Sequence record: MK295204
DNA length: 64,000 nucleotides
Reading direction: 5' to 3' (one strand)
DNA from: Shigella phage vB_SdyM_006
Positions 4,674 to 63,746 of the stretch are shown here, one piece after another; position 1 is the first letter of the stretch, and every line of letters starts with the position of its first letter. The position numbers and the translations under genes were made by a program. The notes under the pieces are model-generated. The model ran no database searches and was not told where the DNA came from. It saw only the letters and a program-made list of their open reading frames with translations.

Positions 4674-4694
4674 AAAAAGGACCCGAAGGTCCTT
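4674..4694 (-). terminator. intrinsic terminator hairpin (GGACC-UUCG-GGUCC plus U-run on minus strand)
   Basis: aaaaaggacccgaaggtcctt; 7-bp stem, tetraloop, A-run on plus = U-run after hairpin on minus; sits between two minus-strand genes. Confidence 0.6.
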
Positions 4695-4707
4695 AATTCA
4701 GATTAGA

Positions 4708-5100
4708 TTAGAAAAATGCTTCTAATAATTTACAAAGAGATTCTGCTTGTTCTTTTGTTTTAACTTCTAGATTCAATTTAATACTTTTACTAGAGACTTC
4801 AGTCACATCATCTTTTGGTTGTATTTCTAAATGAGAAGAATTATCTAAAGAAACACAGTATTTGTCTAAATCAAAATCAGATAGTACATAGGTGGGATAT
4901 TCTTTTGAATCAAAAATATAACCGCCACCCCAATAAAATTTTTCACATGAAATGACTTGGTCATAATCACGAAGAAATGGTTTTTCTATAAGGTCATTAT
5001 CAATTACATACTTTTTAAAATCTTTAGAAGCTTGATGATTTTTATTACTGGTAAAATCTAAAAATGCTGACATGGATTTAAATCTAAAAGTTTTAAACAT
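4708..5100 (-). CDS. hypothetical protein, member of 3-copy tandem paralog family
   Basis: 130 aa; shares FKFKS-like N-terminal motif and LLxxIEK-like C-terminus with the next two ORFs. Confidence 0.45.
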   Translation of the reverse strand: MFKTFRFKSMSAFLDFTSNKNHQASKDFKKYVIDNDLIEKPFLRDYDQVISCEKFYWGGGYIFDSKEYPTYVLSDFDLDKYCVSLDNSSHLEIQPKDDVTEVSSKSIKLNLEVKTKEQAESLCKLLEAFF

Positions 5101-5102
5101 TT

Positions 5103-5531
5103 TTAAGCCTTTTCAATATAATCTAAAAGTGTATTAATAAGTTCACGTGCTTCTTTAACTGATGTCACAGAAGATGATATTAATAATTCCTTTTTAGGTG
5201 TATCAGATTCTTTAAAATCACTTAGTTCTAAATATTCTAGAATACTCGAATCTAACTGAGACCCGATCATAGGAAAAACATAGCTTTCTTCGCCGAAATC
5301 GTCAAAAACTTGCCCATTAGAAAATACAAGTTTTAAACCTGGTAAAGGATCATCAACATTAGCTTGCTCTAATTCATAATCTTCAAAATGGAAAAGTTCA
5401 AATGGGGTGTCAAATAAATTATGATAATTAATAAACCGGATAAATCTTTGTCTAACTGGGATATCATGTCGCTCATAATGTCTAATCAACATATCAGAAG
5501 ATTTAATTTTAAATTTACCTAAACTAGTCAT
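5103..5531 (-). CDS. hypothetical protein, member of 3-copy tandem paralog family
   Basis: 142 aa; MTSLGKFKIKSSD... ...LLDYIEKA. Confidence 0.45.
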   Translation of the reverse strand: MTSLGKFKIKSSDMLIRHYERHDIPVRQRFIRFINYHNLFDTPFELFHFEDYELEQANVDDPLPGLKLVFSNGQVFDDFGEESYVFPMIGSQLDSSILEYLELSDFKESDTPKKELLISSSVTSVKEARELINTLLDYIEKA

Positions 5532-5533
5532 AA

Positions 5534-5947
5534 TTATTTCTCGATAAAATCTAAAAGTTTAATAATTAAAGCCTTTGCATCAGCTTTAGTAATAATAGGG
5601 CTGTCAACTACAATACCGTGACTTAAATTTAATTCAGCAGGACATATATAAGTGAGCATCACTGGATTTAAACGTGTGGCATTGTTTTCAAGATTAAAAA
5701 TATAGTAATCTAAATCTGCATCAGTAAATACCATGCCGTTTTCAAAAACAACTTCAATATCATTCAAATAATAGTCTTTAGATTCTACAATTCTAATATT
5801 AAAAGCAGAATCTCTAAGATTGTTTGACACTAAAAACTCGGCAAATTTAAGTCTTGAGATATTAAAAGTTTCTGCTCCAACATAATCTTTAATACTTTTT
5901 TCTGATTTGAACTTAAAAGTTCCTAGGTCTTTAATTAATTTGCTCAT
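5534..5947 (-). CDS. hypothetical protein, member of 3-copy tandem paralog family
   Basis: Track ORF 5534..5965; start moved to in-frame ATG at 5947 (AAGG Shine-Dalgarno, ATGA overlap with upstream gene); ...LGTFKFKSEK... ...LLDFIEK. Confidence 0.45.
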   Translation of the reverse strand: MSKLIKDLGTFKFKSEKSIKDYVGAETFNISRLKFAEFLVSNNLRDSAFNIRIVESKDYYLNDIEVVFENGMVFTDADLDYYIFNLENNATRLNPVMLTYICPAELNLSHGIVVDSPIITKADAKALIIKLLDFIEK

Positions 5948-6885
5948 AATACGGCCTTTGCCCATTTAGAAGTTTTGGATTTGATTTGTTGATTCAACTC
6001 ATCAATAACAACACACATTAAGTCTTTGTCATTAACCAGTTCATATTCAGGTTTACTACGATAATTCAGCCATAATGTATCGATTAAACAGTTAATAACA
6101 TCAGCTGCTTCACCAGTAGCGCATTCATCAACTTCATCTTGACGAAATGTAGCTTTAGAATATTCGCCAACTTCTTCTACTAAGTGTGCAAATACAATTG
6201 CTAAATCACGTTCAGGTGCTTTAATACACATTTTAACAGTTGGACTAATGTCTAAAATGGGTTCACAATCGAAAGATTCAATTGTCATTTTATCTAGCTC
6301 TTTTTGGTCTGCGTATTGAACAATGCTTAAATGTGTTAATTCAAAAAATTCTTTTTCGCGCTTATTGTATTGTTCTGTTCCAAAATCACCTAAATGGGCA
6401 AATGACCAAAACATTTCACCTTGGTTGTCAAAGTATTCGCCATTTAGACTAATAGATGTAGGATGACCATCTTTATCTGCTTCCAAAATAGTTAAAGTGT
6501 TAATACCTATTTTTGAATATTTTGCATTTAAAATAGGGTATAGCTCCTTTTGTTCACGTGTAATTTGTTGTGGAAGAGCTACAAAAGTATATGTACGTCC
6601 GGCCTGAAGTAATTTACGACGTGTGAATGCTTGTGCTAAACTAGATTTTGATAAAACACACCAAAACTGGTCTTTTTCATAGTCTTCTAATTCAATAATT
6701 TGATTATTGACAAGAATTTTAGACGCGCCTTCAAAGTCAATACCGTTTTGATTTATAGAAACGGTTTCTAAAATTTGAACTTCCATATTATCAAATAGCT
6801 CAATTCCACGTTCTTCTAAAATGTGTGAAAACGAACCAGTTGAAGCAGAAGAAAGATTTAATGTATATAATGCACCGTTATTCAT
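5944..6885 (-). CDS. hypothetical protein with C-terminal MazG-like NTP-pyrophosphohydrolase motif
   Basis: 313 aa; C-terminal segment LAIVFAHLVEEVGEYSKATFRQDEVDECATGEAADVINCLIDTL resembles MazG EExxE/ExxD helices; N-terminal 220 aa unassigned. Confidence 0.4.
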   Translation of the reverse strand: MNNGALYTLNLSSASTGSFSHILEERGIELFDNMEVQILETVSINQNGIDFEGASKILVNNQIIELEDYEKDQFWCVLSKSSLAQAFTRRKLLQAGRTYTFVALPQQITREQKELYPILNAKYSKIGINTLTILEADKDGHPTSISLNGEYFDNQGEMFWSFAHLGDFGTEQYNKREKEFFELTHLSIVQYADQKELDKMTIESFDCEPILDISPTVKMCIKAPERDLAIVFAHLVEEVGEYSKATFRQDEVDECATGEAADVINCLIDTLWLNYRSKPEYELVNDKDLMCVVIDELNQQIKSKTSKWAKAVL

Positions 6886-6889
6886 AATA

Positions 6890-7105
6890 TTATCCTCTTA
6901 AATTTTCAAAAAAGAACTCAGTTTTAGCATCAGTTCCAGTTGAACTGATAACACGTGTATAAACTTCAACGACTTTATTGTTTTCAAACACATAAAGATT
7001 TGTTAAATGAATCATATGAGAAACACAAGATTCTTTTTGGGTCACAGACATTGTATTTGAATATAAAACATCTTCAAATTGGTCACGACTAATTTCGATT
7101 TTCAT
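6890..7105 (-). CDS. hypothetical protein
   Basis: 71 aa ORF, ATG start. Confidence 0.3.
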   Translation of the reverse strand: MKIEISRDQFEDVLYSNTMSVTQKESCVSHMIHLTNLYVFENNKVVEVYTRVISSTGTDAKTEFFFENLRG

Positions 7106-7152
7106 TATAAACTCCGTTGTATTTGTTTTGATGTTTGTATAGTACTAAATAA

Positions 7153-7173
7153 AAGAGGTCTTGTAAACCTCTT
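7153..7173 (-). terminator. putative intrinsic terminator hairpin
   Basis: aagaggt-cttgtaa-acctctt followed by T/A-rich runs on both strands; intergenic after dexA stop. Confidence 0.4.
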
Positions 7174-7180
7174 TTTTGAA

Positions 7181-7861
7181 TTATTTTTTAATTGATACAG
7201 GATCGATATCTTGTTCGTCTGGGACTTCTTCTAATCCAAGAGCATATCGTTCTGCAGTTTTAAGCATAATAATGTCTTTAGCACAGTCATGAATAGAGTC
7301 ATGCAAAACAAACCCGTTTAAAACACCTTTACGAATAGGACACATTGTCATATCACGGTCTAATAAAAGCTTTCTAATAGAAGTTCTTGTGTCATTTTGG
7401 TTCCAGAAAACAATGAATTCTTTTTTAAATGTATCAATATCTTCGATCTTAACACCAGAATCAAGTTCACGTTGTGTTATCATGTGTTTTAAAATTGGAA
7501 AGTCAAAAGACATACCACGAGAATATCCTTGAGACTTCCAGAAATCAATTCCTTGAGAGTCTAAATATTCTTTTAATATATCTAAACCTTCATTAATAGA
7601 CACATCCTGTGGGGACCTGGCTAAATTCTTTTTAGCTTCTTGTGATTGTCCTTTCCACCATTCAACAGTAGATTTATAGAAAACTCTTTTTCCTTTTTGT
7701 GAAGCCAAATCAAATTTAATTCGGAGACCACGTTTAACTAAATCTTCAAACGATTCAACTATAGTTGGGTCTGAATTAAATGTTATAATAGAAAGGTCGA
7801 TAACAGCCGAATCTGGCTGATTACCAAAAGTTTCTAAGTCAAATACAAAATCAATTGCCAT
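7181..7861 (-). CDS. dexA: exonuclease A (DnaQ-like 3'-5' exonuclease)
   Basis: Track ORF 7181..7951 begins at an upstream alternative start; in-frame ATG at 7861 gives MAIDFVFDLETFGNQ (DnaQ exo motif I), 1-nt TAATG overlap with dda stop; T4 order dda-dexA. Confidence 0.7.
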   Translation of the reverse strand: MAIDFVFDLETFGNQPDSAVIDLSIITFNSDPTIVESFEDLVKRGLRIKFDLASQKGKRVFYKSTVEWWKGQSQEAKKNLARSPQDVSINEGLDILKEYLDSQGIDFWKSQGYSRGMSFDFPILKHMITQRELDSGVKIEDIDTFKKEFIVFWNQNDTRTSIRKLLLDRDMTMCPIRKGVLNGFVLHDSIHDCAKDIIMLKTAERYALGLEEVPDEQDIDPVSIKK

Positions 7862-9183
7862 TATATATACCACACATTTTTCTGAGCACGAGTTGTTCCA
7901 ACATACAATAACTGTGAAGCAACATCGACTTCTGCATATTTTATAATACAAGGAGTATAAAGAAAACTATTTTTTACAGTAACACCTTGTGCCTTATGAA
8001 TTGTACTACATGGTATTGGTTTAACTTTGGAAAATGCATCTTTGATTTCCCAGAAATCATCCCAATAAGCACGCCCATTTCCTGATTTATATTGTTGGGC
8101 AACTTTACCTAAAAACATCCAAAGTTGAGTCTGGTTTTCTTCACCATAAACAACGTTAATGTAATTCGTTGTACCTTCGTCAATAGATTGAACTTTTAAA
8201 AGAAAATATGGCAAACTGATTTTAAAATCAACACCACGACATTCTAGTTTACGGTTCATTTCTTTTATTTCTAGAACTTGTACAACTTCGCCGTTATTAA
8301 AGATGATTTCTTTCATCTTTTTACCTTCAAACTTAATAGTTTGCATAAACGGCTCTTGCATTACTAAAGATTCACCCACAATAAATGGTGCTTCAGACTT
8401 ATAAAAATTCTTACGAATGATCTGGTTTAATTTGTCAACAGATTTATTTGTGTATGCAAAAAATCTATTATCAAAAAAATCTTCTTGACATTTAATTTGC
8501 TTAAAATAATCCAGCATCATATCACGTAAAGACGATGGGTGGAAAACGCCTTCTCCATTCTGGATGTTTTCTCGAATCCACCCACCATTTCTAATTTCTG
8601 TAGCAACTTCAATAATAGGTTGATTAGAACGTTTTACTTCTGTTAGATGCATTTGTTTAAAACGCTGATCTGTAAAAAATCTTGATACACCTGGATCGTC
8701 TTGTGGCTTCAACTGGGCTTTATCACCAATAGCAATAACAAGAGTCCAAGGCATAATATTATTCATTAATAACTCAAAAAGCTTAGTGTCATAAAATGAA
8801 GCTTCTTCACAAATAAGAACACGAATTTTATCTAATTCTGGAGCCTTGCGTTGTTCAAAAATACGGTGCTCTTCGTATGTGACTGGGTTTATTTTTAAGA
8901 TACTATGAATTGTAGAAACTTCTCGGCCTGTAAAATCTGCAAGAACTTTTTTAGATGCGTGTGTTGGTGCAGCTAAAACAACCCCAGGAATACCTTCTTG
9001 TTCAATAAAGTCCATAATAAACTTCATTAACAAACTTTTACCTGTACCTGCAGGGCCATTAATAGTTAAATGCGATACTTTAGCTTTCCAATTTGATTCT
9101 TGTTCATAAGCTTGTGTTATTAAATCTGTCGCACATTCATACGCTTCCCTTTGACCTTTTGTCAAGTCGTCAAATTCAATCAT
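7861..9183 (-). CDS. dda: Dda DNA helicase (SF1)
   Basis: 440 aa; HLTINGPAGTGKS Walker A, AAPTHASKKVL, STIHSILKINPVTYEE match remembered T4 Dda. Confidence 0.85.
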   Translation of the reverse strand: MIEFDDLTKGQREAYECATDLITQAYEQESNWKAKVSHLTINGPAGTGKSLLMKFIMDFIEQEGIPGVVLAAPTHASKKVLADFTGREVSTIHSILKINPVTYEEHRIFEQRKAPELDKIRVLICEEASFYDTKLFELLMNNIMPWTLVIAIGDKAQLKPQDDPGVSRFFTDQRFKQMHLTEVKRSNQPIIEVATEIRNGGWIRENIQNGEGVFHPSSLRDMMLDYFKQIKCQEDFFDNRFFAYTNKSVDKLNQIIRKNFYKSEAPFIVGESLVMQEPFMQTIKFEGKKMKEIIFNNGEVVQVLEIKEMNRKLECRGVDFKISLPYFLLKVQSIDEGTTNYINVVYGEENQTQLWMFLGKVAQQYKSGNGRAYWDDFWEIKDAFSKVKPIPCSTIHKAQGVTVKNSFLYTPCIIKYAEVDVASQLLYVGTTRAQKNVWYI

Positions 9184-9473
9184 ACTATTTTCACCCTTTT
9201 AACATAAAGTGTATCTAACATTCTCTTATAGAGTGTCGTCAAATATTCCGGTTTGTTGATTATTGTTTTTTCCTCTCGTTTAAACCAAAGGAATCGATGA
9301 TATTTTATATTGTATTTTGGTTTAAGCTCTTTAGAAAGATATTCTTTAAAACGTTTAAAGGCCTCATTAGAGAGACCTTTTGTTTTATATATCATTAGAA
9401 CTTGAGTATCAGGGTCTTGACATATAACATCAAATCCTGAAGAGTCTTTGTAGACTATCGCATAATAATACAT
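9180..9473 (-). CDS. hypothetical protein (dda.1 position)
   Basis: 97 aa, ATG start, ATGA overlap with dda. Confidence 0.35.
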   Translation of the reverse strand: MYYYAIVYKDSSGFDVICQDPDTQVLMIYKTKGLSNEAFKRFKEYLSKELKPKYNIKYHRFLWFKREEKTIINKPEYLTTLYKRMLDTLYVKRVKIV

Positions 9474-10089
9474 AAAGTTCTTTTCCTACTCTTTTATAAG
9501 AAGAATCTAATGAAATACCTAAATATAATTTTAATTTATCTAATTTAGATAGCTTATTAAATCTTTCTCCAGACTTAATAATAGTTTTTAATATACTAAT
9601 ATCTTTATCTTTAGATTTAACACATTTTTTATATTCTTTATTAAGACGTTTCATTTGCGCTTCTTTTAATCTAACAGATTCTGCTAATTGTTTATCATTT
9701 GGACAACACGCTAAACGCTTTTTAAGTTGGTTCAATTTTATTTGAGCTCTATCAAGTCCAGCTTTTGTTGTCTCTTTTGAGTTTTCACGTGATTTAATTA
9801 TAGCTTTAAGACCTTCTATATCTCGGTCGCCTTTATATTGATTATAAATTCCTTTGATAGGAATAACATTCCCTTTAACATAACCTTTGGAATTATCGAA
9901 TCGTTCAAAAGTAAGAGCATTCGGGTCATTTCGTTTAAATGACACAGAAATCGGTTCATCTGAATAAGCACACTTTGTTTGCTCACAAATATTTTGAACG
10001 TATCGCTTGGATAAATTAAACTCTTTATTGCGGGCTTTAGCAGACTGTTTTAAGTGCTTGAATTTACTACTTAATTGTTTAGAATCCAT
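9430..10089 (-). CDS. hypothetical protein, basic, coiled-coil C-terminus
   Basis: 219 aa, ATG with strong AGGAGG Shine-Dalgarno; occupies the srd/modA/modB region of T4 but no ART or sigma motif recognised. Confidence 0.4.
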   Translation of the reverse strand: MDSKQLSSKFKHLKQSAKARNKEFNLSKRYVQNICEQTKCAYSDEPISVSFKRNDPNALTFERFDNSKGYVKGNVIPIKGIYNQYKGDRDIEGLKAIIKSRENSKETTKAGLDRAQIKLNQLKKRLACCPNDKQLAESVRLKEAQMKRLNKEYKKCVKSKDKDISILKTIIKSGERFNKLSKLDKLKLYLGISLDSSYKRVGKELYVLLCDSLQRLFRI

Positions 10090-10145
10090 TTTTTCCTCCT
10101 AGATTTGATGGAAAGAATAATATAATAATCTAGGAGGAATGTAAA

Positions 10146-10340
10146 CTAATTAATGTAAACTATTTTTCCATTGATAGAGTATGTGATGGAAATTTCTTTT
10201 TTAAATCTATCTTTAATGCTTTCCGGGTAAATAGGAAGAATAGAATCGACAATTCTTAATTGGTCTTCTACACTCATAGAAGGACTAACAGGAAAGCCTT
10301 GTTTTTGAAGGATTCTAGACATTTGCATTAATGTTAGCAT
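10146..10340 (-). CDS. hypothetical protein
   Basis: 64 aa ORF, ATG start, stop-start overlap with gene 56. Confidence 0.3.
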   Translation of the reverse strand: MLTLMQMSRILQKQGFPVSPSMSVEDQLRIVDSILPIYPESIKDRFKKEISITYSINGKIVYIN

Positions 10341-10864
10341 TAATAACCTCGGCTTTGACGATCAAAGTTCTCTGCATTTTTTAAATAATACAAAACAAAG
10401 ATTTCTTCTGAAGACATACCAAGTCCAATAAGTTTATTCATAAAGAAATGCACTTGGTCAATCAATTCAAATTTTACTTCAAGTTGATCTGCTTCCGATA
10501 ACTCATCAAAAGGTTTTTTAGACATTTCTTCATGGCGAGCTTTCCAAGGTTTCCATACTGCTGATGCTTCTTTATCGCCATTAGACATACCGCCTAAAGA
10601 TGTATATAATTCACGGGTTTCGTCGTTTAAATAGTCATCTTGACTACGCATCCATTTAAGGATATCGCCACAAGTTTTTAATTCATCAGGTGACTGATTA
10701 TTAAATGGTTTATTTTTTGCTAAAAACACTTGCAATGATTTTTGCATATCAAGCATAACTTGTAAAGGATCACGTCCTGTTGAAACAATATCAGAATATG
10801 CTTCACGTGCTTTTGATAAAGAGTCTTCATCTACTAAAGTTGAACATACATTAAAATGAGCCAT
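10340..10864 (-). CDS. 56: dCTP pyrophosphatase gp56 (MazG-like)
   Basis: 174 aa; MAHFNVCS...DPLQVMLDMQKSLQ...ETRELYTSLGGMSNGDKEASAVWKPWK...EEIFVLYYLKNAENFDRQSRGY closely matches remembered T4 gp56. Confidence 0.8.
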   Translation of the reverse strand: MAHFNVCSTLVDEDSLSKAREAYSDIVSTGRDPLQVMLDMQKSLQVFLAKNKPFNNQSPDELKTCGDILKWMRSQDDYLNDETRELYTSLGGMSNGDKEASAVWKPWKARHEEMSKKPFDELSEADQLEVKFELIDQVHFFMNKLIGLGMSSEEIFVLYYLKNAENFDRQSRGY

Positions 10865-10872
10865 AATTTTCC

Positions 10873-11436
10873 TTATTCATAATGGATTAAAGTTTTTTGT
10901 GGTTGAGTAACGTTAATAACAGAACAAATTTTATCACATGACGGGTCTAAAGCTGAAATCCAAAAACCTGAGTCGTTCCATAAAGGCTCTTCAGAATATG
11001 CATAGATATCACCGTTTCGGTTTGTAGCAATATAATTTTTATCCTTTTTTATAAAAAGGGTTTTGCCAAAATATTCAACTTGTTTATATATCTCTTCAAC
11101 ACAATGGTCCCAAATAATTGAAGGGTCTTCTTGTTTAATTAAAAAATCTTTTGCTTCTTGTTCGGTATCAAAATAAAGACCTTCTGGTTTATGTGAACCG
11201 ACATAATAAAAAATTCTGTCTGGTGTATTTACTTGTTCTAAATCTTTTAATCTGTATGTATTAAATGCACCATTATCCCAGTTCACTTTAACACAATATC
11301 CATTAGTACCTTGATATTCTTCAGTAATTGTCCCTTCGACATGTGGATTTTCACGTTCTGGATTGGTAGAGTACCATTCAGAAGTTTTAGAAATACGTAC
11401 ACGATTACCTGGATAAAGCTGGTTTTTCTCTAACAT
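10873..11436 (-). CDS. hypothetical protein, tandem paralog family (copy A)
   Basis: 187 aa; N-terminal GNRVRISKTSEW...NP..EGTIT motif and C-terminal NYIATNRNGDIY shared with next ORFs. Confidence 0.45.
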   Translation of the reverse strand: MLEKNQLYPGNRVRISKTSEWYSTNPERENPHVEGTITEEYQGTNGYCVKVNWDNGAFNTYRLKDLEQVNTPDRIFYYVGSHKPEGLYFDTEQEAKDFLIKQEDPSIIWDHCVEEIYKQVEYFGKTLFIKKDKNYIATNRNGDIYAYSEEPLWNDSGFWISALDPSCDKICSVINVTQPQKTLIHYE

Positions 11437-11651
11437 TATACTTTCCTTAAACTTTTAGTCCAATGCACATTAATAGAGCATTTATCAATATAAAATATAT
11501 CACCAGGTGTAACCCAAATATACCCAGGATTTAAATATGGCCTTTTAGTGAATCCATATAAACGCCCATCAGATTCCATAGCAACATATTTTACATCATC
11601 ATTAACAGATAACTGTAGACCTAAATAATCTACAGTTTTTGTATTAACCAT
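11436..11651 (-). CDS. hypothetical protein, truncated paralog (C-terminal domain only)
   Basis: 71 aa; DYLGLQLSVNDDVKYVAMESDGRLYGF resembles C-terminal halves of flanking paralogs. Confidence 0.35.
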   Translation of the reverse strand: MVNTKTVDYLGLQLSVNDDVKYVAMESDGRLYGFTKRPYLNPGYIWVTPGDIFYIDKCSINVHWTKSLRKV

Positions 11652-12201
11652 ATTCTACAAGAGAATTTTTAGCTGTAAACGGTGCAGCACTGTTAAAACT
11701 ACCAATCCAATAGCAATTTTTATCGTAGGCCCGCCATTTTTGTAATAGATTATCGTATTCTGGTTTATCCCAGAATCCATTTACAATACCATCGACATTA
11801 GTAGCAATATAATTAATTGATTCCGGGACTTCAAATTCTTTGCCTAAGTAGTTCAGAACTTTTGTTTTGTCTTTAGGTCTTTCAACAAAAGAGCCCCAAT
11901 CAATAGTTTTTAATTGCAAATTACGTAAATGTTCTTTTGCTTCTTGTTCGGTGTCAAATACTTGAAGTGTTTCATTATTAAGAACACCATACACAAACAC
12001 TGGGTTGTTTACTAAATACAGATCTTCTTCTTTGTATTCATTATAAGACCCAAGGTCCCATTTTACACCAATAGGAAGAGTATTTCCAACAACAATGTCA
12101 GTTATAGTTCCTTCACAATTTGGATTAGCCTCTGTATTACCAGCAGCAATCCAATTAGAATTAGAACTAATTTTTACACGATCGCCTTTTTTAAATTTCA
12201 T
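11644..12201 (-). CDS. hypothetical protein, tandem paralog family (copy B)
   Basis: 185 aa; MKFKKGDRVKISSNSNW...NPNCEGTITD; FDTEQEAKEHL shared with copy A (FDTEQEAKDFL). Confidence 0.45.
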   Translation of the reverse strand: MKFKKGDRVKISSNSNWIAAGNTEANPNCEGTITDIVVGNTLPIGVKWDLGSYNEYKEEDLYLVNNPVFVYGVLNNETLQVFDTEQEAKEHLRNLQLKTIDWGSFVERPKDKTKVLNYLGKEFEVPESINYIATNVDGIVNGFWDKPEYDNLLQKWRAYDKNCYWIGSFNSAAPFTAKNSLVEYG

Positions 12202-12776
12202 TATAATTCCACCAAAGAATTTTTAGGATTTTCGATAACTTCTGCTCTAATAAGCAGTTCTACTTCTATGTCGCCACACTCGTCAGACCAAATACCGTCA
12301 TCTTCGTCATAAGTAGGTTTATGCATAAACGAATAAATATCGCCATCTTCATCAGTAGCAATATAATAATGGTCATCTTTAACTAATAATTCAACACCAA
12401 GATAATTAACAGATTTATATCCAGGAATATGTTGTTTATACGAAACTTTAAGTTTTGGTTCTTTATATGTAAGTTTTTCTAATTCCAAATTAGCCGTATG
12501 TAGTGAAGCAAATGTGCCATTTTTAGGGTCACCAAAAAATCCAATAGTGTAAAGAATTTTAGGCTCTATATTTTTAGCAGAAACTAAATCTTCTCCACGA
12601 TAAGTATTCGTGTAGCCCGAGTCCCATTGAACCTTGATAAAATGAGTGTCTTCATCGATTTGAGGGTACAATTCAATAACTATTCCTTTTACATCAGATG
12701 GGTTGTGGTCTGACTTGCCAAAATATTGTGAGCCAGGAGCAAGTAATACTTTATCACCGATATTAAATTCGCTCAT
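12201..12776 (-). CDS. hypothetical protein, tandem paralog family (copy C)
   Basis: 191 aa; MSEFNIGDKVLLAPGSQYF...NPSDVKGIVIE; HYYIATDEDGDIYSF. Confidence 0.45.
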   Translation of the reverse strand: MSEFNIGDKVLLAPGSQYFGKSDHNPSDVKGIVIELYPQIDEDTHFIKVQWDSGYTNTYRGEDLVSAKNIEPKILYTIGFFGDPKNGTFASLHTANLELEKLTYKEPKLKVSYKQHIPGYKSVNYLGVELLVKDDHYYIATDEDGDIYSFMHKPTYDEDDGIWSDECGDIEVELLIRAEVIENPKNSLVEL

Positions 12777-12786
12777 TATGAGTCCT

Positions 12787-13239
12787 TTATTTTAAGATAT
12801 TTGAAGCTAATTGGATATCATAAAAGGATAACCCAATTAAGCCATTAACTTGAATGAAGTTGCCTTCTAGGCCATATACATAATGCTGAATAGAATCATC
12901 TAATACAACATATTTTTCGACTTTATGGTCTAAAACATACCTTAAGATACTTACACCGCGTGATCGTCCGCCACCAGTATAATCTATTGTATCATAGATG
13001 TCTATTCCTAGAGCTTCAGAGATTTCTTTTTCTCGCTCTTTGCATTTGGGGTCTCCAGACGGTCTGGCCCAAGAAGAAATTAAAACAACTTTAGCGTCGA
13101 CACACGATAATAGGTCATGGAAACGTTGCAATTCATAGTGTCCAATATAACCTAAACGTGTTCTAACTGCTAAATCATCGTCAAAACATGATCGTTGGCT
13201 ATTTAACACACCGTCAATATCAAGAAATATCACATTCAT
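12787..13239 (-). CDS. HAD-superfamily hydrolase-like protein
   Basis: Track ORF 12787..13254; start moved to ATG at 13239 (TAATG coupling); MNVIFLDIDGVLN = HAD motif I (DxDG). Confidence 0.45.
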   Translation of the reverse strand: MNVIFLDIDGVLNSQRSCFDDDLAVRTRLGYIGHYELQRFHDLLSCVDAKVVLISSWARPSGDPKCKEREKEISEALGIDIYDTIDYTGGGRSRGVSILRYVLDHKVEKYVVLDDSIQHYVYGLEGNFIQVNGLIGLSFYDIQLASNILK

Positions 13240-13424
13240 TAGTTTTCTTCCCATGCATCACATTCTGTTGTGTCATCACGAACTACGTCTTCGTCAATTA
13301 ACACACCACAACCGTATTCTTCAACATCTTTTAAAGCCTCTTCAATTGTTTCAGCTTCAACTTCATAAATCCGTCGTCCGCGAACATATCCTGAAAAGTT
13401 TACTCCAACTTTAAATTTGGCCAT
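13239..13424 (-). CDS. hypothetical acidic small protein
   Basis: Track start is TTG; first ATG at 13424 with GGAG Shine-Dalgarno; 61 aa. Confidence 0.3.
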   Translation of the reverse strand: MAKFKVGVNFSGYVRGRRIYEVEAETIEEALKDVEEYGCGVLIDEDVVRDDTTECDAWEEN

Positions 13425-13740
13425 ATTCTTCTCCAATTTTAATTAAAATTTTTGCCAATGCTTCTTGGTATGTTTTTCCTGCTAAACTAGAGTCAAAATT
13501 AGAACTTATTAAGCTATCACTTTCCGAAGTCCAAAAATCTCTATGATGTGTAACAGAAATTTTATGCTTCTCGATAACTTCAAAAATATTCTTAGGTGGA
13601 TTTTTAAAGAAGTCGAATTCATACCAATTATATCCATCACCCCAATGAATAGTATCACCAGAACCATCAGACACATCTTCCCAGTCAACAAACAAAGAAA
13701 GTAATTTTTGATTCATTTCTTTTTTAGTCATATCAGACAT
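13411..13740 (-). CDS. hypothetical protein
   Basis: 109 aa ORF, ATG start. Confidence 0.35.
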   Translation of the reverse strand: MSDMTKKEMNQKLLSLFVDWEDVSDGSGDTIHWGDGYNWYEFDFFKNPPKNIFEVIEKHKISVTHHRDFWTSESDSLISSNFDSSLAGKTYQEALAKILIKIGEEYGQI

Positions 13741-13742
13741 AA

Positions 13743-14762
13743 TTATCCCTTACAGTATTTTGCATGTCTAAGTTTAGCTTCCAATCCAGAACATATATTA
13801 TCTTTCATATATTGCTCTATTTCTTCTGCAGTAGCACCTTCTTTAACAATCATATCATTGACATCTTTGGATGTAAACTTTAATTTATCCCACATAACAA
13901 CTTTTTCACCGGCTTCAATTAATTTTTCCAGACGTTTTGATGTATCTGGATGTCTAGGTTCATTATCTAGTACCCACACACGAGTATGCGGGAATGGAAC
14001 AAAATCAAGACTTAAAGTACCGCCTGTTATTGCACAGGAATTAGGAATAAACAAAGAATCTAACGGCCCTTCAAACATAAAAACAGTTTTATTTGGGTCA
14101 ACTGTATCTTGTCCGTATATCTTAGTAGAACTCTCAGAAGCTTTTATTGTCACATATTTTGCATTAGATTTCTTTAAAGCCCTTCCTTGGAAACTTTCTA
14201 TCTCACCATCTTTATTGAAAATAGGAATAACTAATCTATATTCTTGTTTTGGCGTGTCGTAAGTCCCAGGAACAACACTGTTACATAATCCTTGCCAATC
14301 TGTAGTAAACCATAACCTTGACCATTTGTCTTTAGGAATCTTCCTGGCCTTAACATAAGATATAATAGGGTGCGATTCCGGTAATTTATCTAATCGTTCA
14401 GAAAAATTTAATTTTTCTATTATCTTTTTAGGGGCATGTTTGGGTTCGAATTTTTCTACGGGTTTATAAAAAACATTTTGTTCTTTTCTGCGCTCCATTA
14501 ATAAAGAAGGCCAGAGTTCAGGATGATGGTCTTTAACAAATTCAGTAAAAGGTCTGCTATAATCACAGTTAAAGCATTTTACCCAGAGACAATCCATTTC
14601 TTGGAGTTCTATAATCCAGAATCTAGCTTTAGTTTCAGAAACAGCCGAATCACCACAAATAGGACACCTACAGTTAACCCTAAATGGTGAATTACTAGTC
14701 TTTTTATACATTGGTTCAAATCTGACAATATTGTCAGCAAAATCATAATCAGCTAAAAACAT
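13743..14762 (-). CDS. 61: DNA primase gp61
   Basis: 339 aa; zinc ribbon CRCPICGDS...C..C, then VKARKIPKDKWSRLWFTTDW, ESFQGRALKK, RVWVLDNEPRHPDT, SKDVNDMIVKEGAT match remembered T4 gp61. Confidence 0.85.
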   Translation of the reverse strand: MFLADYDFADNIVRFEPMYKKTSNSPFRVNCRCPICGDSAVSETKARFWIIELQEMDCLWVKCFNCDYSRPFTEFVKDHHPELWPSLLMERRKEQNVFYKPVEKFEPKHAPKKIIEKLNFSERLDKLPESHPIISYVKARKIPKDKWSRLWFTTDWQGLCNSVVPGTYDTPKQEYRLVIPIFNKDGEIESFQGRALKKSNAKYVTIKASESSTKIYGQDTVDPNKTVFMFEGPLDSLFIPNSCAITGGTLSLDFVPFPHTRVWVLDNEPRHPDTSKRLEKLIEAGEKVVMWDKLKFTSKDVNDMIVKEGATAEEIEQYMKDNICSGLEAKLRHAKYCKG

Positions 14763-14775
14763 ATATCCTCTATAC

Positions 14776-14798
14776 CAAAAAAGGAGCCATGGCTCCTT
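14776..14798 (-). terminator. intrinsic terminator hairpin
   Basis: aaaaaaggagccatggctcctt palindrome with A-run (U-run on minus) between 123-aa ORF and gene 61. Confidence 0.5.
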
Positions 14799-14809
14799 TA
14801 TATCATAAT

Positions 14810-15181
14810 TTAATTAGTAGCATCTTTTTTCTTTTTCTTGCCTAATTTATTAGGGCCTTTTGAAGTAATAGAACCGGTGGTTTTTCCTGATGCAATGTTT
14901 TCTATACTTCCACCAGAATCGCCAGCTACCATTTCTTCTATAATCGGATGTTCTAAAAATGATTCATCCAAATTATAGTCATCCATTATCTCATATACTT
15001 TTTTAACCCGTTCAGCATAAATTTTTGAACCTTGCTTTAACCACCTTACATCTTTGTGTAACCGGGTATAAGAAGGGTCATGCATAACAAATTTAATAAC
15101 ATCACCGTTTTCATTAATGATGCCTTTTTTAAAGGCATCCCATTCAGTAAAAGGCATTTCTAATAATTCAATTATGCTCAT
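14810..15181 (-). CDS. hypothetical protein with lysine-rich C-terminal tail
   Basis: 123 aa, ATG start, ATGA overlap with gene 41. Confidence 0.35.
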   Translation of the reverse strand: MSIIELLEMPFTEWDAFKKGIINENGDVIKFVMHDPSYTRLHKDVRWLKQGSKIYAERVKKVYEIMDDYNLDESFLEHPIIEEMVAGDSGGSIENIASGKTTGSITSKGPNKLGKKKKKDATN

Positions 15182-16599
15182 AAAATTAATCCTTCTAAAC
15201 TATCTGCTAATTTATCAATCTTATCACGAGTATTTAATTCTGCTTGGTTAATCATTTTACCTTGGACTACATTAAGGTCTGGTTCTTCTTTGATAGTCGA
15301 ATCAGTTTCTACCCAGCGTTGATTACCCTTTTTAACAATTAAATTAAACTTGTTCCATTTATTTTTATCTCCATATCGAGATTTAATTTGTTTAATTAAT
15401 TGTTGTCCCATTTGGGCCAGTTCTTCTGTTTCTACAACACCCAACATAAAATCTGCTGTGGCTGGTAAACCTGCTGATTCAGCCACATCTGCCATTTCCA
15501 TATCAGACGCTGACCAGGCTTGTCTTCCGGTTTGAGCAGCTGTCCATAGTACTGTTTGGGTTTCAATAGCAAGACCACGTAATTCTTCAGCAATTGCTTT
15601 AATTAAAGTATAGCTATTTTCTGTGAATTTTAAACGAGTACTACCACAAATGCCAAGATAGTCGATAATAATAACATCTGGAATAAACCCATCTTTTAAT
15701 TTAAGTTCATTTAAAAGAGCTCGGAATGTATTAGCATTAGCGCCGCCAGTCGGATATTGTTTGAATTTTAATCTTCCTGGGGTTTTTCCACCGGAACCTT
15801 TTTTAAGGCGTTCCATTTTTGCCTTAAATTCCGCATAAGTAATATTATTATTATCAATGTCATCTAATGAGACATCCAGTAAATTGGCGTCAATACGTTT
15901 TGCACAGACATGCTCTGCCATTTCCATACTGATATATAAAACGTTATATCCAGTTTGTAAATAGTCTGCAGCTAAAGAACATAGACCAAGTGATTTACCA
16001 ACGTTAACACCTGCCATTAAAATGTTAAGTGTACCTTTTTCAGCACCACCTTTAGTTATTCTATTAAGAATAGATAGTTTAAAAGGAATCTTATTAGCTT
16101 TTGTTTGGTACAATAACCAGCGTTTTTCATAATCATCAAAATAATCATGACCAATATCAGAATCAAAGCAAATAGACAATGCTTCTTGAAGAATCTCAGG
16201 AATAATTCCTTTATCTGGGAGTCTTTTATCGCGTTTGGATTCTTCTAAAGTTGCATTAGTTTGAATTTCGATACTTTTAGACATAGCATTATAAAGAGCT
16301 ATATCTTGGACATACTTTTCTGTAGATTTGACCAGCCAATCAAAATCTTCAGGAGTATTTTTCATTTTCCCTAAAAATTCTTTAGCGGCTTTAAATTGGG
16401 CTTCACCAAGAGAACTATTATCAATAGCAATATCTAATGCTGTCATTGATGGGACAGATTTAAATTCTTCTACGTGTTTTTTAATAGTGTCAAAAACCGT
16501 TTTAGAAGACCCGTCAAAATATTCTTGTTTTAAATATGGCCATACTTTAATGAAATAGTCTTTATTATAAATTAGCTGAGATAATATTACATTAACCAT
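15178..16599 (-). CDS. 41: replicative DNA helicase gp41 (DnaB-like)
   Basis: 473 aa; NILMAGVNVGKSLGL Walker A, RecA-like core, size and position as T4 gp41. Confidence 0.85.
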   Translation of the reverse strand: MVNVILSQLIYNKDYFIKVWPYLKQEYFDGSSKTVFDTIKKHVEEFKSVPSMTALDIAIDNSSLGEAQFKAAKEFLGKMKNTPEDFDWLVKSTEKYVQDIALYNAMSKSIEIQTNATLEESKRDKRLPDKGIIPEILQEALSICFDSDIGHDYFDDYEKRWLLYQTKANKIPFKLSILNRITKGGAEKGTLNILMAGVNVGKSLGLCSLAADYLQTGYNVLYISMEMAEHVCAKRIDANLLDVSLDDIDNNNITYAEFKAKMERLKKGSGGKTPGRLKFKQYPTGGANANTFRALLNELKLKDGFIPDVIIIDYLGICGSTRLKFTENSYTLIKAIAEELRGLAIETQTVLWTAAQTGRQAWSASDMEMADVAESAGLPATADFMLGVVETEELAQMGQQLIKQIKSRYGDKNKWNKFNLIVKKGNQRWVETDSTIKEEPDLNVVQGKMINQAELNTRDKIDKLADSLEGLIL

Positions 16600-16961
16600 T
16601 AGTGTCCCTTAAAGATGTCAAAAATACTAAAACCTTTTTTAACTTCAGTATTTTCAATTTGTGTTTTAATACATTTTTCTATGTGAGGTTCTAAAATATC
16701 TTTAGGTAAATCAGAAAGCGTAGAATAATCATATTCTACTTTACCGTTTTTAATATCTATAGAATGGATATACACTAAGTGTGGAGTATTATTGATTAAT
16801 ACAATTATTTCTTGGATAACATTTTTCATAGATTCTTTAACAACTTCTAATGACTTTTCATATATCTCTTGGTCATTTCCGATGTCATCAAGAATCTTAA
16901 ATTCTTGGTCAAAGTTTTGCATAGATATAGTTTCCGCAGTCCCAAATTCGTCGAAGACCAT
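16599..16961 (-). CDS. hypothetical protein (gene 40 position)
   Basis: 120 aa, ATG start; lies between gene 41 and the uvsX side as gene 40 does in T4; sequence not recognised. Confidence 0.3.
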   Translation of the reverse strand: MVFDEFGTAETISMQNFDQEFKILDDIGNDQEIYEKSLEVVKESMKNVIQEIIVLINNTPHLVYIHSIDIKNGKVEYDYSTLSDLPKDILEPHIEKCIKTQIENTEVKKGFSIFDIFKGH

Positions 16962-19436: not shown

Positions 19437-19490
19437 TTTTTATCCTTTAAAAATGACAAACATAATATTTTACTCAAATCACAAATTAAT

Positions 19491-23030: not shown

Positions 23031-23049
23031 AAAAAGGCCTTTCGGCCTT
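23031..23049 (-). terminator. intrinsic terminator hairpin (AAGGCC-GAAA-GGCCUU plus U-run)
   Basis: aaaaaggcctttcggcctt; near-identical copy at 47483-47502. Confidence 0.55.
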
Positions 23050-29736: not shown

Positions 29737-29790
29737 GTATTTTCCTAGTTTTAATTCCGAGTGATTAGAATATTAAAAGGGACGTTGTCC

Positions 29791-29988
29791 CTATATTTCG
29801 ACTACTGTTCTTTCCCAGTTTGGAAATCTATCTGCGTTGTATGTAAAAACCGATATACATTTTATTTCTGGGTTAGTTCGAACAGCTTTAGATACTTGTG
29901 TTGCTATTTGTTGGGTCATTGATTGTGATTCGAAAAAAGAAGGGCCTCTAGAGGCCACATTCCAAAATTCTTTATTATAATAATCCAT
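29791..29988 (-). CDS. hypothetical protein
   Basis: Track start GTG; first ATG at 29988 immediately after regA stop; 65 aa. Confidence 0.3.
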   Translation of the reverse strand: MDYYNKEFWNVASRGPSFFESQSMTQQIATQVSKAVRTNPEIKCISVFTYNADRFPNWERTVVEI

Positions 29989-40209: not shown

Positions 40210-40231
40210 CAAAAAGGACCCGAAGGTCCTT
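40210..40231 (-). terminator. intrinsic terminator hairpin (identical to 4674-4694 element)
   Basis: aaaaaggacccgaaggtcctt; U-run on minus strand; upstream of nrdG start. Confidence 0.6.
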
Positions 40232-47482: not shown

Positions 47483-47502
47483 AAAAAAGGCCTTTCGGCC
47501 TT
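47483..47502 (-). terminator. intrinsic terminator hairpin (AAGGCC-GAAA-GGCCUU plus U6)
   Basis: aaaaaaggcctttcggcctt immediately downstream of stop at 47506; same element as 23031-23049. Confidence 0.6.
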
Positions 47503-50803: not shown

Positions 50804-51226
50804 TTAGATTTTTTCAAAACCTGATTCGTCGCAATCATTTTCATCATAAAACACGGTGTACCCAAGTTTTATCATAGCTTGTAGAGTAGCATTCATGATA
50901 TCAATATTTTCTTCAGAATGGTTCATATTTAAATAAACATAAGCAGAATCACCTGTATGCTCTTTATACTCGTCTTCATTAATTGTCACAACAAAAATAG
51001 ATTTTGGTGATTTGTTTCGTGTAAAATACAGTCGAAAGCACTCTAAATTGTAAGCAATAAGTTCACAAATGGAATTAGTTTTATTTCTCACATTTAAAGA
51101 TTCAAATGAATCTTTAAAAATAGATGAATTTAATTCTTTAGATTCTAAATTGATGCAATCAATAATATCGTTTACTGCTTTGATTTTATCATCACAAAGA
51201 ATCAAAGCTCTAGAACACATTCCCAT
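50804..51226 (-). CDS. hypothetical protein
   Basis: 140 aa, ATG start. Confidence 0.3.
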   Translation of the reverse strand: MGMCSRALILCDDKIKAVNDIIDCINLESKELNSSIFKDSFESLNVRNKTNSICELIAYNLECFRLYFTRNKSPKSIFVVTINEDEYKEHTGDSAYVYLNMNHSEENIDIMNATLQAMIKLGYTVFYDENDCDESGFEKI

Positions 51227-51839: not shown

Positions 51840-51916
51840 GATAATTCTCCTTTGATTTGATAAAGCTTATAATATCATAGACCAAGGCAAAGTAAACAAT
51901 TATTTTCATTTAAAAC

Positions 51917-51941
51917 CAAAAAAGGAACCTTTTGGTTCCTT
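51917..51941 (-). terminator. intrinsic terminator hairpin overlapping stop codon
   Basis: aaaaaaggaaccttttggttcctt; U-run on minus; same stem as 63721-63746 element. Confidence 0.55.
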
Positions 51942-61127: not shown

Positions 61128-61144
61128 TATAACCTCCTAGTAAA

Positions 61145-61162
61145 ATGGGCCTTTCGGCCCAT
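61145..61162 (-). terminator. putative terminator hairpin
   Basis: atgggcc-tttc-ggcccat followed on minus strand by TTTT then Shine-Dalgarno of next gene. Confidence 0.4.
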
Positions 61163-61177
61163 TAATCAGTTTACTGA

Positions 61178-61774: not shown

Positions 61775-61965
61775 TTTATTTCCTTACATGTATTAGTTTC
61801 AAAATCAACAATAATATTTTTACGTTCAATGCCAAGATTAATTAATTTAGAAATACATTGACCTTGGATTTTTTGGTCTTCTAAACCTTTAGAAACACTT
61901 TTAGATAATGCACTCCATGAAAAACAAATAACTATTAAAATAACACATCCAATTAAATATTTCAT
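61771..61965 (-). CDS. hypothetical secreted small protein
   Basis: Track ORF to 62025; ATG at 61965 with GGAG Shine-Dalgarno gives MKYLIGCVILIVICFSWSALS signal peptide. Confidence 0.3.
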   Translation of the reverse strand: MKYLIGCVILIVICFSWSALSKSVSKGLEDQKIQGQCISKLINLGIERKNIIVDFETNTCKEIK

Positions 61966-62031
61966 GATATACTCCATTTGTTTTGATGTGTCTATAGTAT
62001 TATAGATTTTTTGTGTTGTAAACATTTATTT

Positions 62032-62487
62032 TTAATTTTTTGAAATTAATTTTCGACATTGGTTTATGTATGCTTTGCGCTGGTTGTCCTCTAATTTTTC
62101 TAGATACGCAGCTTTTTGATCTTTAAAATTAACTAATCTTTCACTTATCTTATTAAATGTATCAGATTTAAGATAAAATACAGATCTTTTAGATTTAAAT
62201 TCAAAATAAGCTATAACAGTTCTTGACACATTTTCTCCTGGCTTCACTTGTGTCCTAGTACTTAATGGAAAATTCAAGTACATTGCAGCTGTGTATTCAG
62301 CCAAGAAGAAAGTCACTTTATCGACGTTATATAAGAGCCAGGACAATATATCATCTTCATTGATATATCTAAATTCAGATTCAATTAAAAGCCTATACCG
62401 AAGATCTGAGACTTGACATTTGCCAGCTTCATAAGAAGGCTCAAAACTTTCTGTGATGACAGAAAGTTCATCTAAATTATAATTCAT
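62032..62487 (-). CDS. hypothetical protein, tandem paralog family (copy 1)
   Basis: 151 aa; shares YxxxxxxVxFxxAEYTAAMYLNFPL and C-terminal AYIxxCRK with next two ORFs. Confidence 0.4.
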   Translation of the reverse strand: MNYNLDELSVITESFEPSYEAGKCQVSDLRYRLLIESEFRYINEDDILSWLLYNVDKVTFFLAEYTAAMYLNFPLSTRTQVKPGENVSRTVIAYFEFKSKRSVFYLKSDTFNKISERLVNFKDQKAAYLEKLEDNQRKAYINQCRKLISKN

Positions 62488-62914
62488 TTAGAGATTCCTT
62501 TATTTTATTTCTACATGATTCAATATAAGCTAAACGTTCAGAAGTTTTGATGGCTTCAATAAATTTGGTTCTTTTATTTTTAAAATCGTCAAACTCAGAA
62601 TATACACTATTGAAAAAATCAGCATCTAAATATACTACGTATTTTTTGTCGTCAAGCATAAATTCAGCTATAACCATACTAGTATATTTTGGGGCTTTTG
62701 AGCCAAGATATATTTTATTTAAACCTTTTAATGGAAAATTCCCGTATGTAGCATACTCGTAGTCAGCGCAATAAAATCTAACAGAACTTACATTATGGTA
62801 CATCCAATTGACAAAGTACTTAGTATACTGTTTATTTTTTCTACGTAAATCAGCAACTAAATATCCTGCTTCTTCTTCATCAAATAATGCAATAAAGTCA
62901 AAATTATTTTTCAT
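62477..62914 (-). CDS. hypothetical protein, tandem paralog family (copy 2)
   Basis: Track start TTG at 62950; first ATG 62914; YCADYEYATYGNFPL, AYIESCRNKIK. Confidence 0.4.
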   Translation of the reverse strand: MKNNFDFIALFDEEEAGYLVADLRRKNKQYTKYFVNWMYHNVSSVRFYCADYEYATYGNFPLKGLNKIYLGSKAPKYTSMVIAEFMLDDKKYVVYLDADFFNSVYSEFDDFKNKRTKFIEAIKTSERLAYIESCRNKIKESLNEL

Positions 62915-63374
62915 GGGTATGACCTTTAATTTTACGACGACATTTTTCAATATAGAAGTCTAATTCATTGGTATACTTAGAATTTACATAAATTTGTTTA
63001 TTTTTACTAAAACCTGAAATACCTTTTAAAACACCTTTGGCTTGATTATAGTCTATAAAGAACACATGTTCTTTATTATCGTACATAAATCTTAAAGCAA
63101 AAGTATCTTTATAGATATTAGATTCTTTTGTAACGATAGAATTAGTAGATTTATCAAGTGGCAAATTACATGCAAGAGCACAAGTATACTCACACTCATA
63201 TAATGTCACATAATTTGTATTAGTATACAAAAAATCTAGAATCTCATCAGAGGTCCAAGCTTTCTCAATATCATTTCCTAGAACACGTAGTTTCCAAAAA
63301 GTGGATTGACGTATATCAGCCCAGATAACATTATTATCTTTGCCTGCTTCAGGTCCTTTAAAAATATCAATCAT
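62904..63374 (-). CDS. hypothetical protein, tandem paralog family (copy 3)
   Basis: 156 aa; ECEYTCALACNLPL, FYIEKCRRKIK. Confidence 0.4.
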   Translation of the reverse strand: MIDIFKGPEAGKDNNVIWADIRQSTFWKLRVLGNDIEKAWTSDEILDFLYTNTNYVTLYECEYTCALACNLPLDKSTNSIVTKESNIYKDTFALRFMYDNKEHVFFIDYNQAKGVLKGISGFSKNKQIYVNSKYTNELDFYIEKCRRKIKGHTHEK

Positions 63375-63664
63375 TATATCCTCTCACAAAAAGCCCAATT
63401 AGCATGATAAACTGAAGCGCCTTTAGTATCATTCATGCACACTAAGTCTACAGGAGACACCACTCTATATAAAACAGGTTCTCCACCTAATGAACGCGCA
63501 GCTCTTCCGGCATAAATTTTAGCCAAACCTAAATCTTCAGTAAAGAAAACTCGGTCTAAATTTTTCTTACGTCCTTTTTCAGAAATAGTCTCAGTTGTTT
63601 CTGGTGGAAGTAACATATGTTCAATACCACATACAGAAGAAGAACCATGATAAAAAGTTTTCAT
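63374..63664 (-). CDS. small protein with Arr-like (rifampin ADP-ribosyltransferase-type) motif pattern
   Basis: 96 aa; FYHGSSS near N-terminus, then RVFFTEDL and GGEPVLYRV resemble Arr H-G-T / Y-F-S / Y-I-Y-x-V-E pattern; weak, by eye. Confidence 0.3.
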   Translation of the reverse strand: MKTFYHGSSSVCGIEHMLLPPETTETISEKGRKKNLDRVFFTEDLGLAKIYAGRAARSLGGEPVLYRVVSPVDLVCMNDTKGASVYHANWAFCERI

Positions 63665-63720
63665 TATAGACTCCGTTTTTAAATTATGTAGCTATTATAC
63701 ACACAATTTTTAATTTGTAC

Positions 63721-63746
63721 ATACTATAAACGAAAAAAGGAACCAA
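63721..63746 (-). terminator. intrinsic terminator hairpin (bidirectional-looking)
   Basis: cgaaaaaaggaaccaaaaggttcctt; U-run on minus strand; follows stop of partial gene at 63752. Confidence 0.55.

Follow-up and report, generated by a model that had tools for sequence, protein, structure and literature searches.

T4-type phages are described as particularly rich in CUUCGG hairpins between their genes (Tuerk et al. 1988, PNAS 85:1364, as cited in PMC8948821). These hairpins have short stems closed by C(UUCG)G, and often lie beside a U-run or a ribosome-binding site; T4 itself carries AAGGACUCC-UUCG-GGAGUCCUU-UUUU after soc. A second described system is the PeSL (promoter-early stem-loop) cassette, an intergenic composite laid out as stop codon, AT-rich region, stem-loop, early promoter, Shine-Dalgarno sequence (SD) and ATG, in which the stem-loop acts as a terminator or attenuator and varies in position (Arbiol 2010, PMC2839356; Comeau 2014, PMC4122927). 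The stem consensus of the PeSL is lineage-specific (GN-loop-CN, or A3-4G3-loop-C3T3-4; PMC4122927), and in vivo the termination by one PeSL stem-loop equalled that of rrnB T1 (PMC2839356). Here we analyse hairpins of this already known kind in a 64,000-nt stretch of the genome of Shigella phage vB_SdyM_006 (MK295204), which we call the window. Their orthologs are annotated as rho-independent terminators in the GenBank records of the phages Pm5461 (NC_028762) and Morganella MP1 (NC_031020).

A 4-kb sample of the window matches the opposite strand of the record of Proteus phage phiP4-3 (Straboviridae, Bragavirus) at 98.4% identity. The hairpins lie at the ends of genes on the minus strand, and each is named below by the coordinate of the 5′ end of its stem on that strand. 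We consider it likely that they are Rho-independent terminators or attenuators in a T4-like Proteus phage (Bragavirus), acting on its polycistronic early and middle transcripts, and that their sequences recur because the design space is small and not through the action of a mobile element.

While the T4 hairpins are closed by C(UUCG)G, this phage additionally uses C(GAAA)G and the non-special loops AAAA, UUUU and CAUG. The window also appears to be more densely populated, with 10 strict hits compared to 3 in the first 50 kb of T4 under criteria that are related but not identical. In common with canonical enterobacterial Rho-independent terminators there is an A-run, a G+C-rich hairpin and a U-run, located past the stop codon and co-oriented with the gene. 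However, with only 4-6 G-C pairs the stems are very short and depend on hyperstable tetraloops. The G-C core is followed by no more than 5-6 U, two or three of which pair with the A-run, and most of the hairpins are internal to operons and must be leaky.

The sites at 51941, 63757 and 7175 share the layout of the PeSL, with an early sigma-70-type promoter in the same gap; 7175 matches the subclass in which the stem-loop lies over the -35 element. The stems also resemble those of the PeSL in that their consensus is typical of the lineage, the 5′ arm being rich in G and the 3′ arm in C. By contrast, the sites at 4694, 40231, 23049 and 47502 lack the promoter of a PeSL, and there is no conservation over ~100 bp between copies. 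A possible link to indels is seen at only a few sites.

Anatomy and enrichment of the hairpins

The first-pass annotation of this stretch had described six hairpins in three families of near-identical members, on the minus strand at gene ends and each followed by a U-run. All six are present at those places. The 3′ arm of each merges into 5-6 consecutive U that start in the last stem pairs, and the gap between stop codon and stem is -2 to +13 nt. The open reading frame (ORF, called mechanically) is always co-oriented, on the gene strand.

The sequence AAGGACC-UUCG-GGUCCUU with its U-run is found identically at 4674..4694 (hairpin 4694-4677; -10.5 to -14.5 kcal/mol), 13 nt past a stop codon, and at 40211..40231 (hairpin 40231-40214), 2 nt past a stop codon. 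The first copy is followed by the SD GGAG at 4668-4665 and the ATG of the next gene at 4659-4657, giving a stem-to-ATG spacing of 17 nt, and the second by the SD and ATG (40195-40193) of nrdG. Similarly AAGGCC-GAAA-GGCCUU with its U-run occurs identically at 23031..23049 (hairpin 23049-23034; -9.7 kcal/mol) and 47483..47502 (hairpin 47502-47487; -9.8 kcal/mol), in each case 3 nt past the stop codon. A peptidase gene (ATG 23014-23012) lies downstream of the former, while the latter precedes the SD GGAG and an ATG at 47473-47471.

The third pair is different, and here the description as near-identical holds for the stem alone. AAGGAACC-AAAA-GGUUCCUU (51869..51941, hairpin 51941-51922; -12.3 kcal/mol) continues into a UUUUUUGGUUUU tail, an AT-rich stretch and a promoter of early type (-35 TTTACT at 51896-51891, N16, -10 TATTAT at 51874-51869). 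AAAGGAACC-UUUU-GGUUCCUUU (63694..63757, hairpin 63757-63736; -12.5 kcal/mol) is followed by a U-run and another early-type promoter (-35 TGTACA at 63721-63716, N16, -10 TATAAT at 63699-63694). The loops AAAA and UUUU are reverse complements of each other. Thus the families are not uniform: a UUCG or GNRA loop with a C-G closing pair is found in the GGACC (UUCG) and GGCC (GAAA) pairs but not in the GGAACC pair (AAAA, UUUU), and among the families only the third adjoins early promoters.

Each of the three motifs has an expectation of 0.00 matches, calculated from 100 dinucleotide shuffles. We also applied a stringent definition that is independent of the sequences first reported, i.e. a perfect stem of at least 6 bp including at least three G-C pairs, a tetraloop, and at least four consecutive T. 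The minus strand has ten such hairpins and the plus strand has none; 60 shuffles gave 0.18 ± 0.47 for both strands together. The calculation of folding free energy that had been proposed as a check gave energies of -9.7 to -15.3 kcal/mol and z-scores of -1.9 to -3.65 across nine sites, namely the six hairpins and three others. A scan of the entire window against Rfam at gathering thresholds gave no match.

A genome-wide count had also been suggested, and in the whole of phiP4-3 each of the three stems was found three times. The count was made on the reassembled genome, with intergenic location and orientation taken from the annotation of the record. By our definition of a terminator there are 31 distinct sites, 24 of which are intergenic and co-oriented with the upstream gene. 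The stems include three of GGACC-UUCG, three of GGCC-GAAA, three of GGAACC (with three different loops) and four of GGAGAC with UUCG or UCCG. Among the 24 terminators the loop is UUCG in 10 and GAAA in five, i.e. 15 in total, the closing pair is C-G in 22, and purines make up 79% of the bases of the 5′ arm. There is therefore a single template, comprising an A-run, a G-rich arm, a C(UUCG)G or C(GAAA)G tetraloop, a C-rich arm and a U-run.

Between the window and phiP4-3 (98% identical) three hairpins differ in the loop and none in the stem. At 51941 the loop is AAAA in the window and GAAA in phiP4-3 (and UACG in Pm5461), at 14799 it is CAUG against UAUG, and at 63757 UUUU against AAAA. We note that on the gene strand the loop at 63745-63748 is the exact inverse of that in phiP4-3, with all 87 of the other aligned positions identical, which suggests a one-step inversion of the loop or palindrome.

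Conservation at orthologous sites in related phages

Phage Pm5461 is ~80% identical to the window, and all the sites that we examined in it retain a perfect or near-perfect hairpin, four of them with a different stem. At the nrdG site AAGGACC-UUCG is identical in the window, the Morganella phages MP1 and Rgz1, and Providencia phage 127 (Gualtarvirus), while AAAGGGC-UUCG is found in Pm5461, PM2 and SJ_PmiM. In the alignment of these seven phages every cell is paired, with both partners altered in three of the pairs. Four phages compared at the 4694 site have the stems GGACC, AGGGAC, AAAAGGGAC/GUCCUUUUU (which includes a G.U pair) and AAGGGC, but the loop is always UUCG; 96% of the cells are paired, and both partners are again altered in three pairs. 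The hairpins at 4694 and 40231, identical in the window, differ from each other in the related phages. As judged from these alignments, the conserved features are the structure and the special loop, while the stems vary by compensatory substitution.

The terminators annotated in Pm5461 and MP1 are at the same positions as the hairpins of the window, with stems that differ at several sites through compensatory change. They include those upstream of the nrdG, primase, peptidase and DNA polymerase genes, and that upstream of the gp39-proximal ORF. The ortholog of 23049 in Pm5461, which shares its core, carries a terminator annotation, and that of 47502 is the same hairpin with only three U. The record of phiP4-3, which is the closest to the window, lacks the terminator annotation that is present in those of Pm5461 and MP1. 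Taken with the anatomy, the bias to one strand, the fold energy and the compensatory conservation, the annotation in the sister records supports a terminator-type reading of the hairpins at the ends of minus-strand genes.

A small design space or a dispersed element

The first-pass annotation had suggested that the exact reuse of these sequences reflected either a dispersed element or strong selection for particular tetraloops. Copies of an element would be expected to share their flanks, and we compared the flanks of the 24 phiP4-3 terminators. The identity between pairs with the same core and pairs with different cores is 0.46 and 0.42 upstream (P = 0.14), and 0.43 and 0.37 downstream (P = 0.11), so there is no family-specific flank homology. 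The sequence GUAUGGAGA is found downstream of both GGACC copies, and likewise after a different stem at 167699 of phiP4-3.

The exact 21-mer AAGGACCTTCGGGTCCTTTTT is reused worldwide. It occurs in at least 120 stretches of the IMG/VR database in at least 103 distinct flanking contexts, with a median flank identity of 28% among the matches listed; these matches are in contigs of 4-383 kb, with a local G+C content of 29-57%. A control design with flipped G-C pairs (AACCACCTTCGGGTGGTTTTT) is likewise found in at least 120 IMG/VR stretches. Since both the 21-mer and its flipped control are abundant, any short UUCG hairpin with a U-run is evidently a common solution. The invariance of UUCG across genera, the C-G closing pair in 22 of 24 terminators and the unrelated contexts of the 21-mer all favour strong selection for particular tetraloops.

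It is highly improbable that the hairpins derive from a small dispersed element of a mobile or selfish kind, such as a miniature inverted-repeat transposable element (MITE), a repetitive extragenic palindromic (REP) element or a complete PeSL cassette. Exact repeats of 16-22 nt do occur at distant sites, the hairpins at 51941, 63757 and 7175 lie within PeSL-type terminator-promoter cassettes, and an extra ORF adjoins the 63757 cassette in Pm5461. Yet homology between copies ends at the hairpin, U-run and SD, four of the six hairpins first described have no promoter, the two GGAACC cassettes differ in both loop and promoter sequence, and the orthologous sites in sister species retain the hairpin with other stems. 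The extended shared sequence that typifies a MITE- or REP-like element is absent, the flanks of same-core pairs being equivalent to those of different-core pairs and the IMG/VR contexts unrelated.

The genome does contain a true dispersed repeat, which shares 97-100% identity over 65-121 nt between loci. This serves as an internal positive control for what true copies look like, and the hairpin families have nothing comparable. It comprises an AT-rich unit of ~66 nt, present as a tandem pair (37103-37164 and 37169-37230) in the long gap upstream of gene 55. Such units are found at four intergenic loci of phiP4-3 (128692-128918, 9856-9976, 47826-48063 and 93106-93271) with 97-100% identity, and the copies in Pm5461 are ~95% identical, i.e. 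above the flanking genes. The repeat is restricted to T4-like phages of Proteus, Morganella and Providencia. The copy in the window is 100% identical to that in SJ_PmiM and to 9856-9976 of phiP4-3, but only 93-94% identical to its own phiP4-3 ortholog; because it is closer to a non-orthologous copy, gene conversion between copies is indicated. A hairpin (37074-37096) adjoins the repeat, and a GGAGC-triloop hairpin lies beside every repeat locus. The repeat could be a PeSL-like promoter cassette or an origin; our scan for consensus promoters did not flag 37103-37230.

The best reading of these data is that the copies are drawn from a few very stable designs, and have not been spread by a mobile element.

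A proposed role in termination and attenuation

From the sequence comparisons we infer that the hairpins bring about both termination and stabilization of the RNA. In this mechanism RNA polymerase would pause at the U-run as the hairpin forms, and a fraction of the transcripts would end there; termination would thus be partial, i.e. attenuation. The hairpin would also guard the upstream message against exonucleases that attack at its 3′ end. Few sequences are likely to suit an AT-rich genome in providing a short, very stable stem-loop that begins in an A-run and ends in a U-run, and non-homologous sites may arrive repeatedly at the same sequence. On this basis the copies would look identical because very few sequences satisfy these requirements.

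The G-C cores have 4-6 bp, and 3-4 U are left unpaired. Moreover at 4694, 14799, 23049, 40231, 47502 and 61163 an SD and ATG lie within 13-19 nt of the stem, leaving no room for a promoter. Given these short stems, the few unpaired U and the lack of a separate promoter for six downstream genes, nrdG and that of the primase among them, termination is probably partial.

A number of observations weigh against this reading, either in its account of function or in its explanation of sequence identity. A looser scan for terminators in positions 1-20000 gave no enrichment (seven found, 7.9 expected), so that the signal belongs to the tight class of hairpin. The U-runs are short compared to those of strong terminators, and some orthologs (at 47.7 kb in Pm5461, and in PSTCR6) retain the hairpin with only three U; these fit a role in RNA stability or translation better than one in termination. 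Our search of the literature found no Term-seq data set for T4-type phages, and termination is deduced from sequence. Pairs of terminators with identical cores are more numerous in phiP4-3 than a column-shuffle null predicts (16 against 4.3 ± 2.0), although that null is position-independent and ignores thermodynamic coupling between positions. Loops are also associated with cores in phiP4-3 (P = 0.003), and some degree of copying, or of selection on the whole sequence, operates beyond a simple consensus. In the GGACC pair (4694 and 40231) 34 of 35 positions are identical, bases outside the stem included, and the GGACC state of the 4694 site is derived relative to three related phages.

Possible post-transcriptional roles and copying between sites

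The short U-runs and the lack of space for promoters raise the question of whether the hairpins act mainly after transcription, as 3′ barriers following endonuclease cleavage, as 5′ stabilizers, or as insulators of the ribosome-binding site, and belong to the downstream gene. We regard this as possible but somewhat doubtful. Read-through is required at the six sites where SD and ATG follow within 13-19 nt, and the orthologs with only three U keep the hairpin. At the nrdG site the sequence conserved across genera extends from the hairpin into nrdG, with unrelated DNA on the upstream side. Stabilization of the T4 gene 32 mRNA by a 5′ CUUCGG hairpin has been reported, as described in PMC8948821. 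Furthermore the phage encodes a RegB-like endoribonuclease, and the SD of nrdG (GGAGAAUAAAA, 40195-40205) agrees at every position with the published consensus for strong RegB cleavage, GG*AGRAYARAA. However, a U-run is present at all of the sites in the window, continuous with the 3′ arm in the manner of canonical terminators, and a post-transcriptional role is in any case compatible with partial termination. Nor is the RegB consensus enriched, with eight matches to GGAGRAYARAA (allowing up to one mismatch) in the window where 12 are expected. The sole exact match is that at the nrdG ribosome-binding site, and we have rejected a general module of hairpin plus RegB site.

The near-identity of the GGACC pair could alternatively arise from copying of a module of ~35 nt, comprising terminator and ribosome-binding site, between intergenic cassettes by short-patch gene conversion or PeSL-type recombination. 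The source of the present 4694 sequence would then be the nrdG or wac site, with the replacement taking place in the lineage of phiP4-3. We consider such copying unlikely, but there are several points in its favour. The identity of the pair takes in the AATT that precedes the stem and the GUAUGGAGA that follows. Pm5461, SJ_PmiM and PSTCR6 carry other stems at the 4694 site and lack GU before AUGGAG; the state in the window is therefore derived, and every difference points to the sequence of the nrdG site. The version at the nrdG site, by contrast, is ancestral, being common to Gualtarvirus. The excess of identical-core pairs is of the kind that copying would generate. Conversion between dispersed intergenic repeats is also seen in the lineage, since 37107-37227 of the window matches 9856-9976 of phiP4-3 at 100% identity and its own ortholog at only 94%. 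Finally, crossovers in the PeSL have been mapped inside the loops of the stem-loops (PMC2839356).

On the other hand, the occurrence of GUAUGGAGA after a different hairpin at 167699 of phiP4-3 indicates a recurrent ribosome-binding-site context and no marker of copying, and family-specific similarity of flanks is absent across all pairs. The homology that conversion could use is only 18-35 nt long, and the unrelated contexts of the 21-mer make it clear that convergence is easy. The breakpoints of homology between the window and Pm5461 are seldom at hairpins. Some lie at or near 61134, 29792 and 63667, with most ends of high-scoring segment pairs away from hairpins, and only that at 61134 falls within 30 nt of one.

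A more specific form of this proposal is that modules smaller than the PeSL evolve in concert, with a cassette of ~35 nt (hairpin, U-run and GUAUGGAGA ribosome-binding site) copied by short-patch gene conversion from one intergenic site to another that is not homologous, the nrdG site having overwritten the 4694 site in the phiP4-3 lineage. This is more speculative still, and we think it rather improbable. If it were true, the identity of the terminators would reflect homogenization as well as selection. We continue to favour terminators or attenuators that have converged within a small design space.

Further hairpins and features of the window

The list of hairpins first reported is incomplete, since the same template is found at 14799-14780, 61163-61144, 29792-29778 and 7175-7151, all on the minus strand. 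Upstream of the DNA primase gene is AAAGGAGC-CAUG-GCUCCUUU with a U-run (14776..14799, hairpin 14799-14780; -11.4 kcal/mol). AAUGGGCC-GAAA-GGCCCAUU with UUUU (61140..61163, hairpin 61163-61144; -14.1 to -15.3 kcal/mol) is followed by the SD AGGAGG and an ATG. The orthologs of both in Pm5461 are annotated as terminators. The hairpin AAAAGAGGU-UUACAAG-ACCUCUUUU (7139..7175, hairpin 7175-7151) overlaps an early-type promoter, with the -35 element TTTACA (7167-7162) contained in its loop and 3′ arm and the -10 element TACTAT at 7144-7139.

The hairpin AGGGAC-AAC-GUCCCU (29778..29792) is weak (-6.5 kcal/mol, z-score -1.1). A small ORF ends with this hairpin, and the DNA polymerase gene starts 41 nt further downstream. 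The small ORF and its terminal hairpin (29778-29979) are swapped in Pm5461 for an unrelated ORF that ends with a GGCC-GAAA hairpin. Homology with Pm5461 resumes directly past the 29792 hairpin, indicating that the hairpin travels with the upstream gene module.

Two further stem-loops lie within coding sequence. AAGGCCC-AAAA-GGGCCUU at 43375-43358, which a repeat search had placed with the GGCC family, was rejected as a terminator; it is ~50 nt into the frame of endonuclease VII (gene 49), where it encodes ...YKAQKGL... (MLLSGKSFKQEKEKLYKAQKGLCC...), has no U-run, and is identical in Pm5461. At 38548-38565 the sequence AGCCUCG-AUAU-CGAGGCU followed by UUU is on the sense strand within a long ORF (a homolog of phiP4-3 gp199), and is also identical in Pm5461.

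Three regions at 7108-7190, 50736-50818 and 61963-62045 form a family that is 63-71% alike over 83 nt. Each has a -35 element of TTTACA or TGTACA and a -10 element of TACTAT or TAGTAT, followed by ...CAUCAAAACAAAUGGAG and an ATG. This is the consensus of a T4-type early promoter and its leader.

In full mapping the window is collinear with phiP4-3 from 166200 down to 101956, except for a diverged segment at 11671-13245. All the genes annotated across this stretch of phiP4-3 are on the minus strand of the window. Their order is rIIA, gp39, dexA, dda, primase, uvsX, DNA polymerase, clamp, gp46/47, gp55, nrdG/nrdD, tk and endolysin, which is the content of a T4-type early and middle region, and the G+C content is ~31%. 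The segment 11671-13245, located between dda/srd and the primase gene, is the only one that is not collinear at ~98% identity; 12806-13236 has 80% identity and the remainder is unmatched. Such a pattern identifies it as an apparent gene replacement.

Implications

While these hairpins open no long-standing question, they are of practical value in annotation. They mark the ends of cistrons and the likely points of attenuation in the early region of Bragavirus, for which phiP4-3 has no such annotation. We note also that a small design space drives unrelated sites to identical sequences of 18-21 nt, and this calls for caution in reading short exact repeats as mobile DNA.

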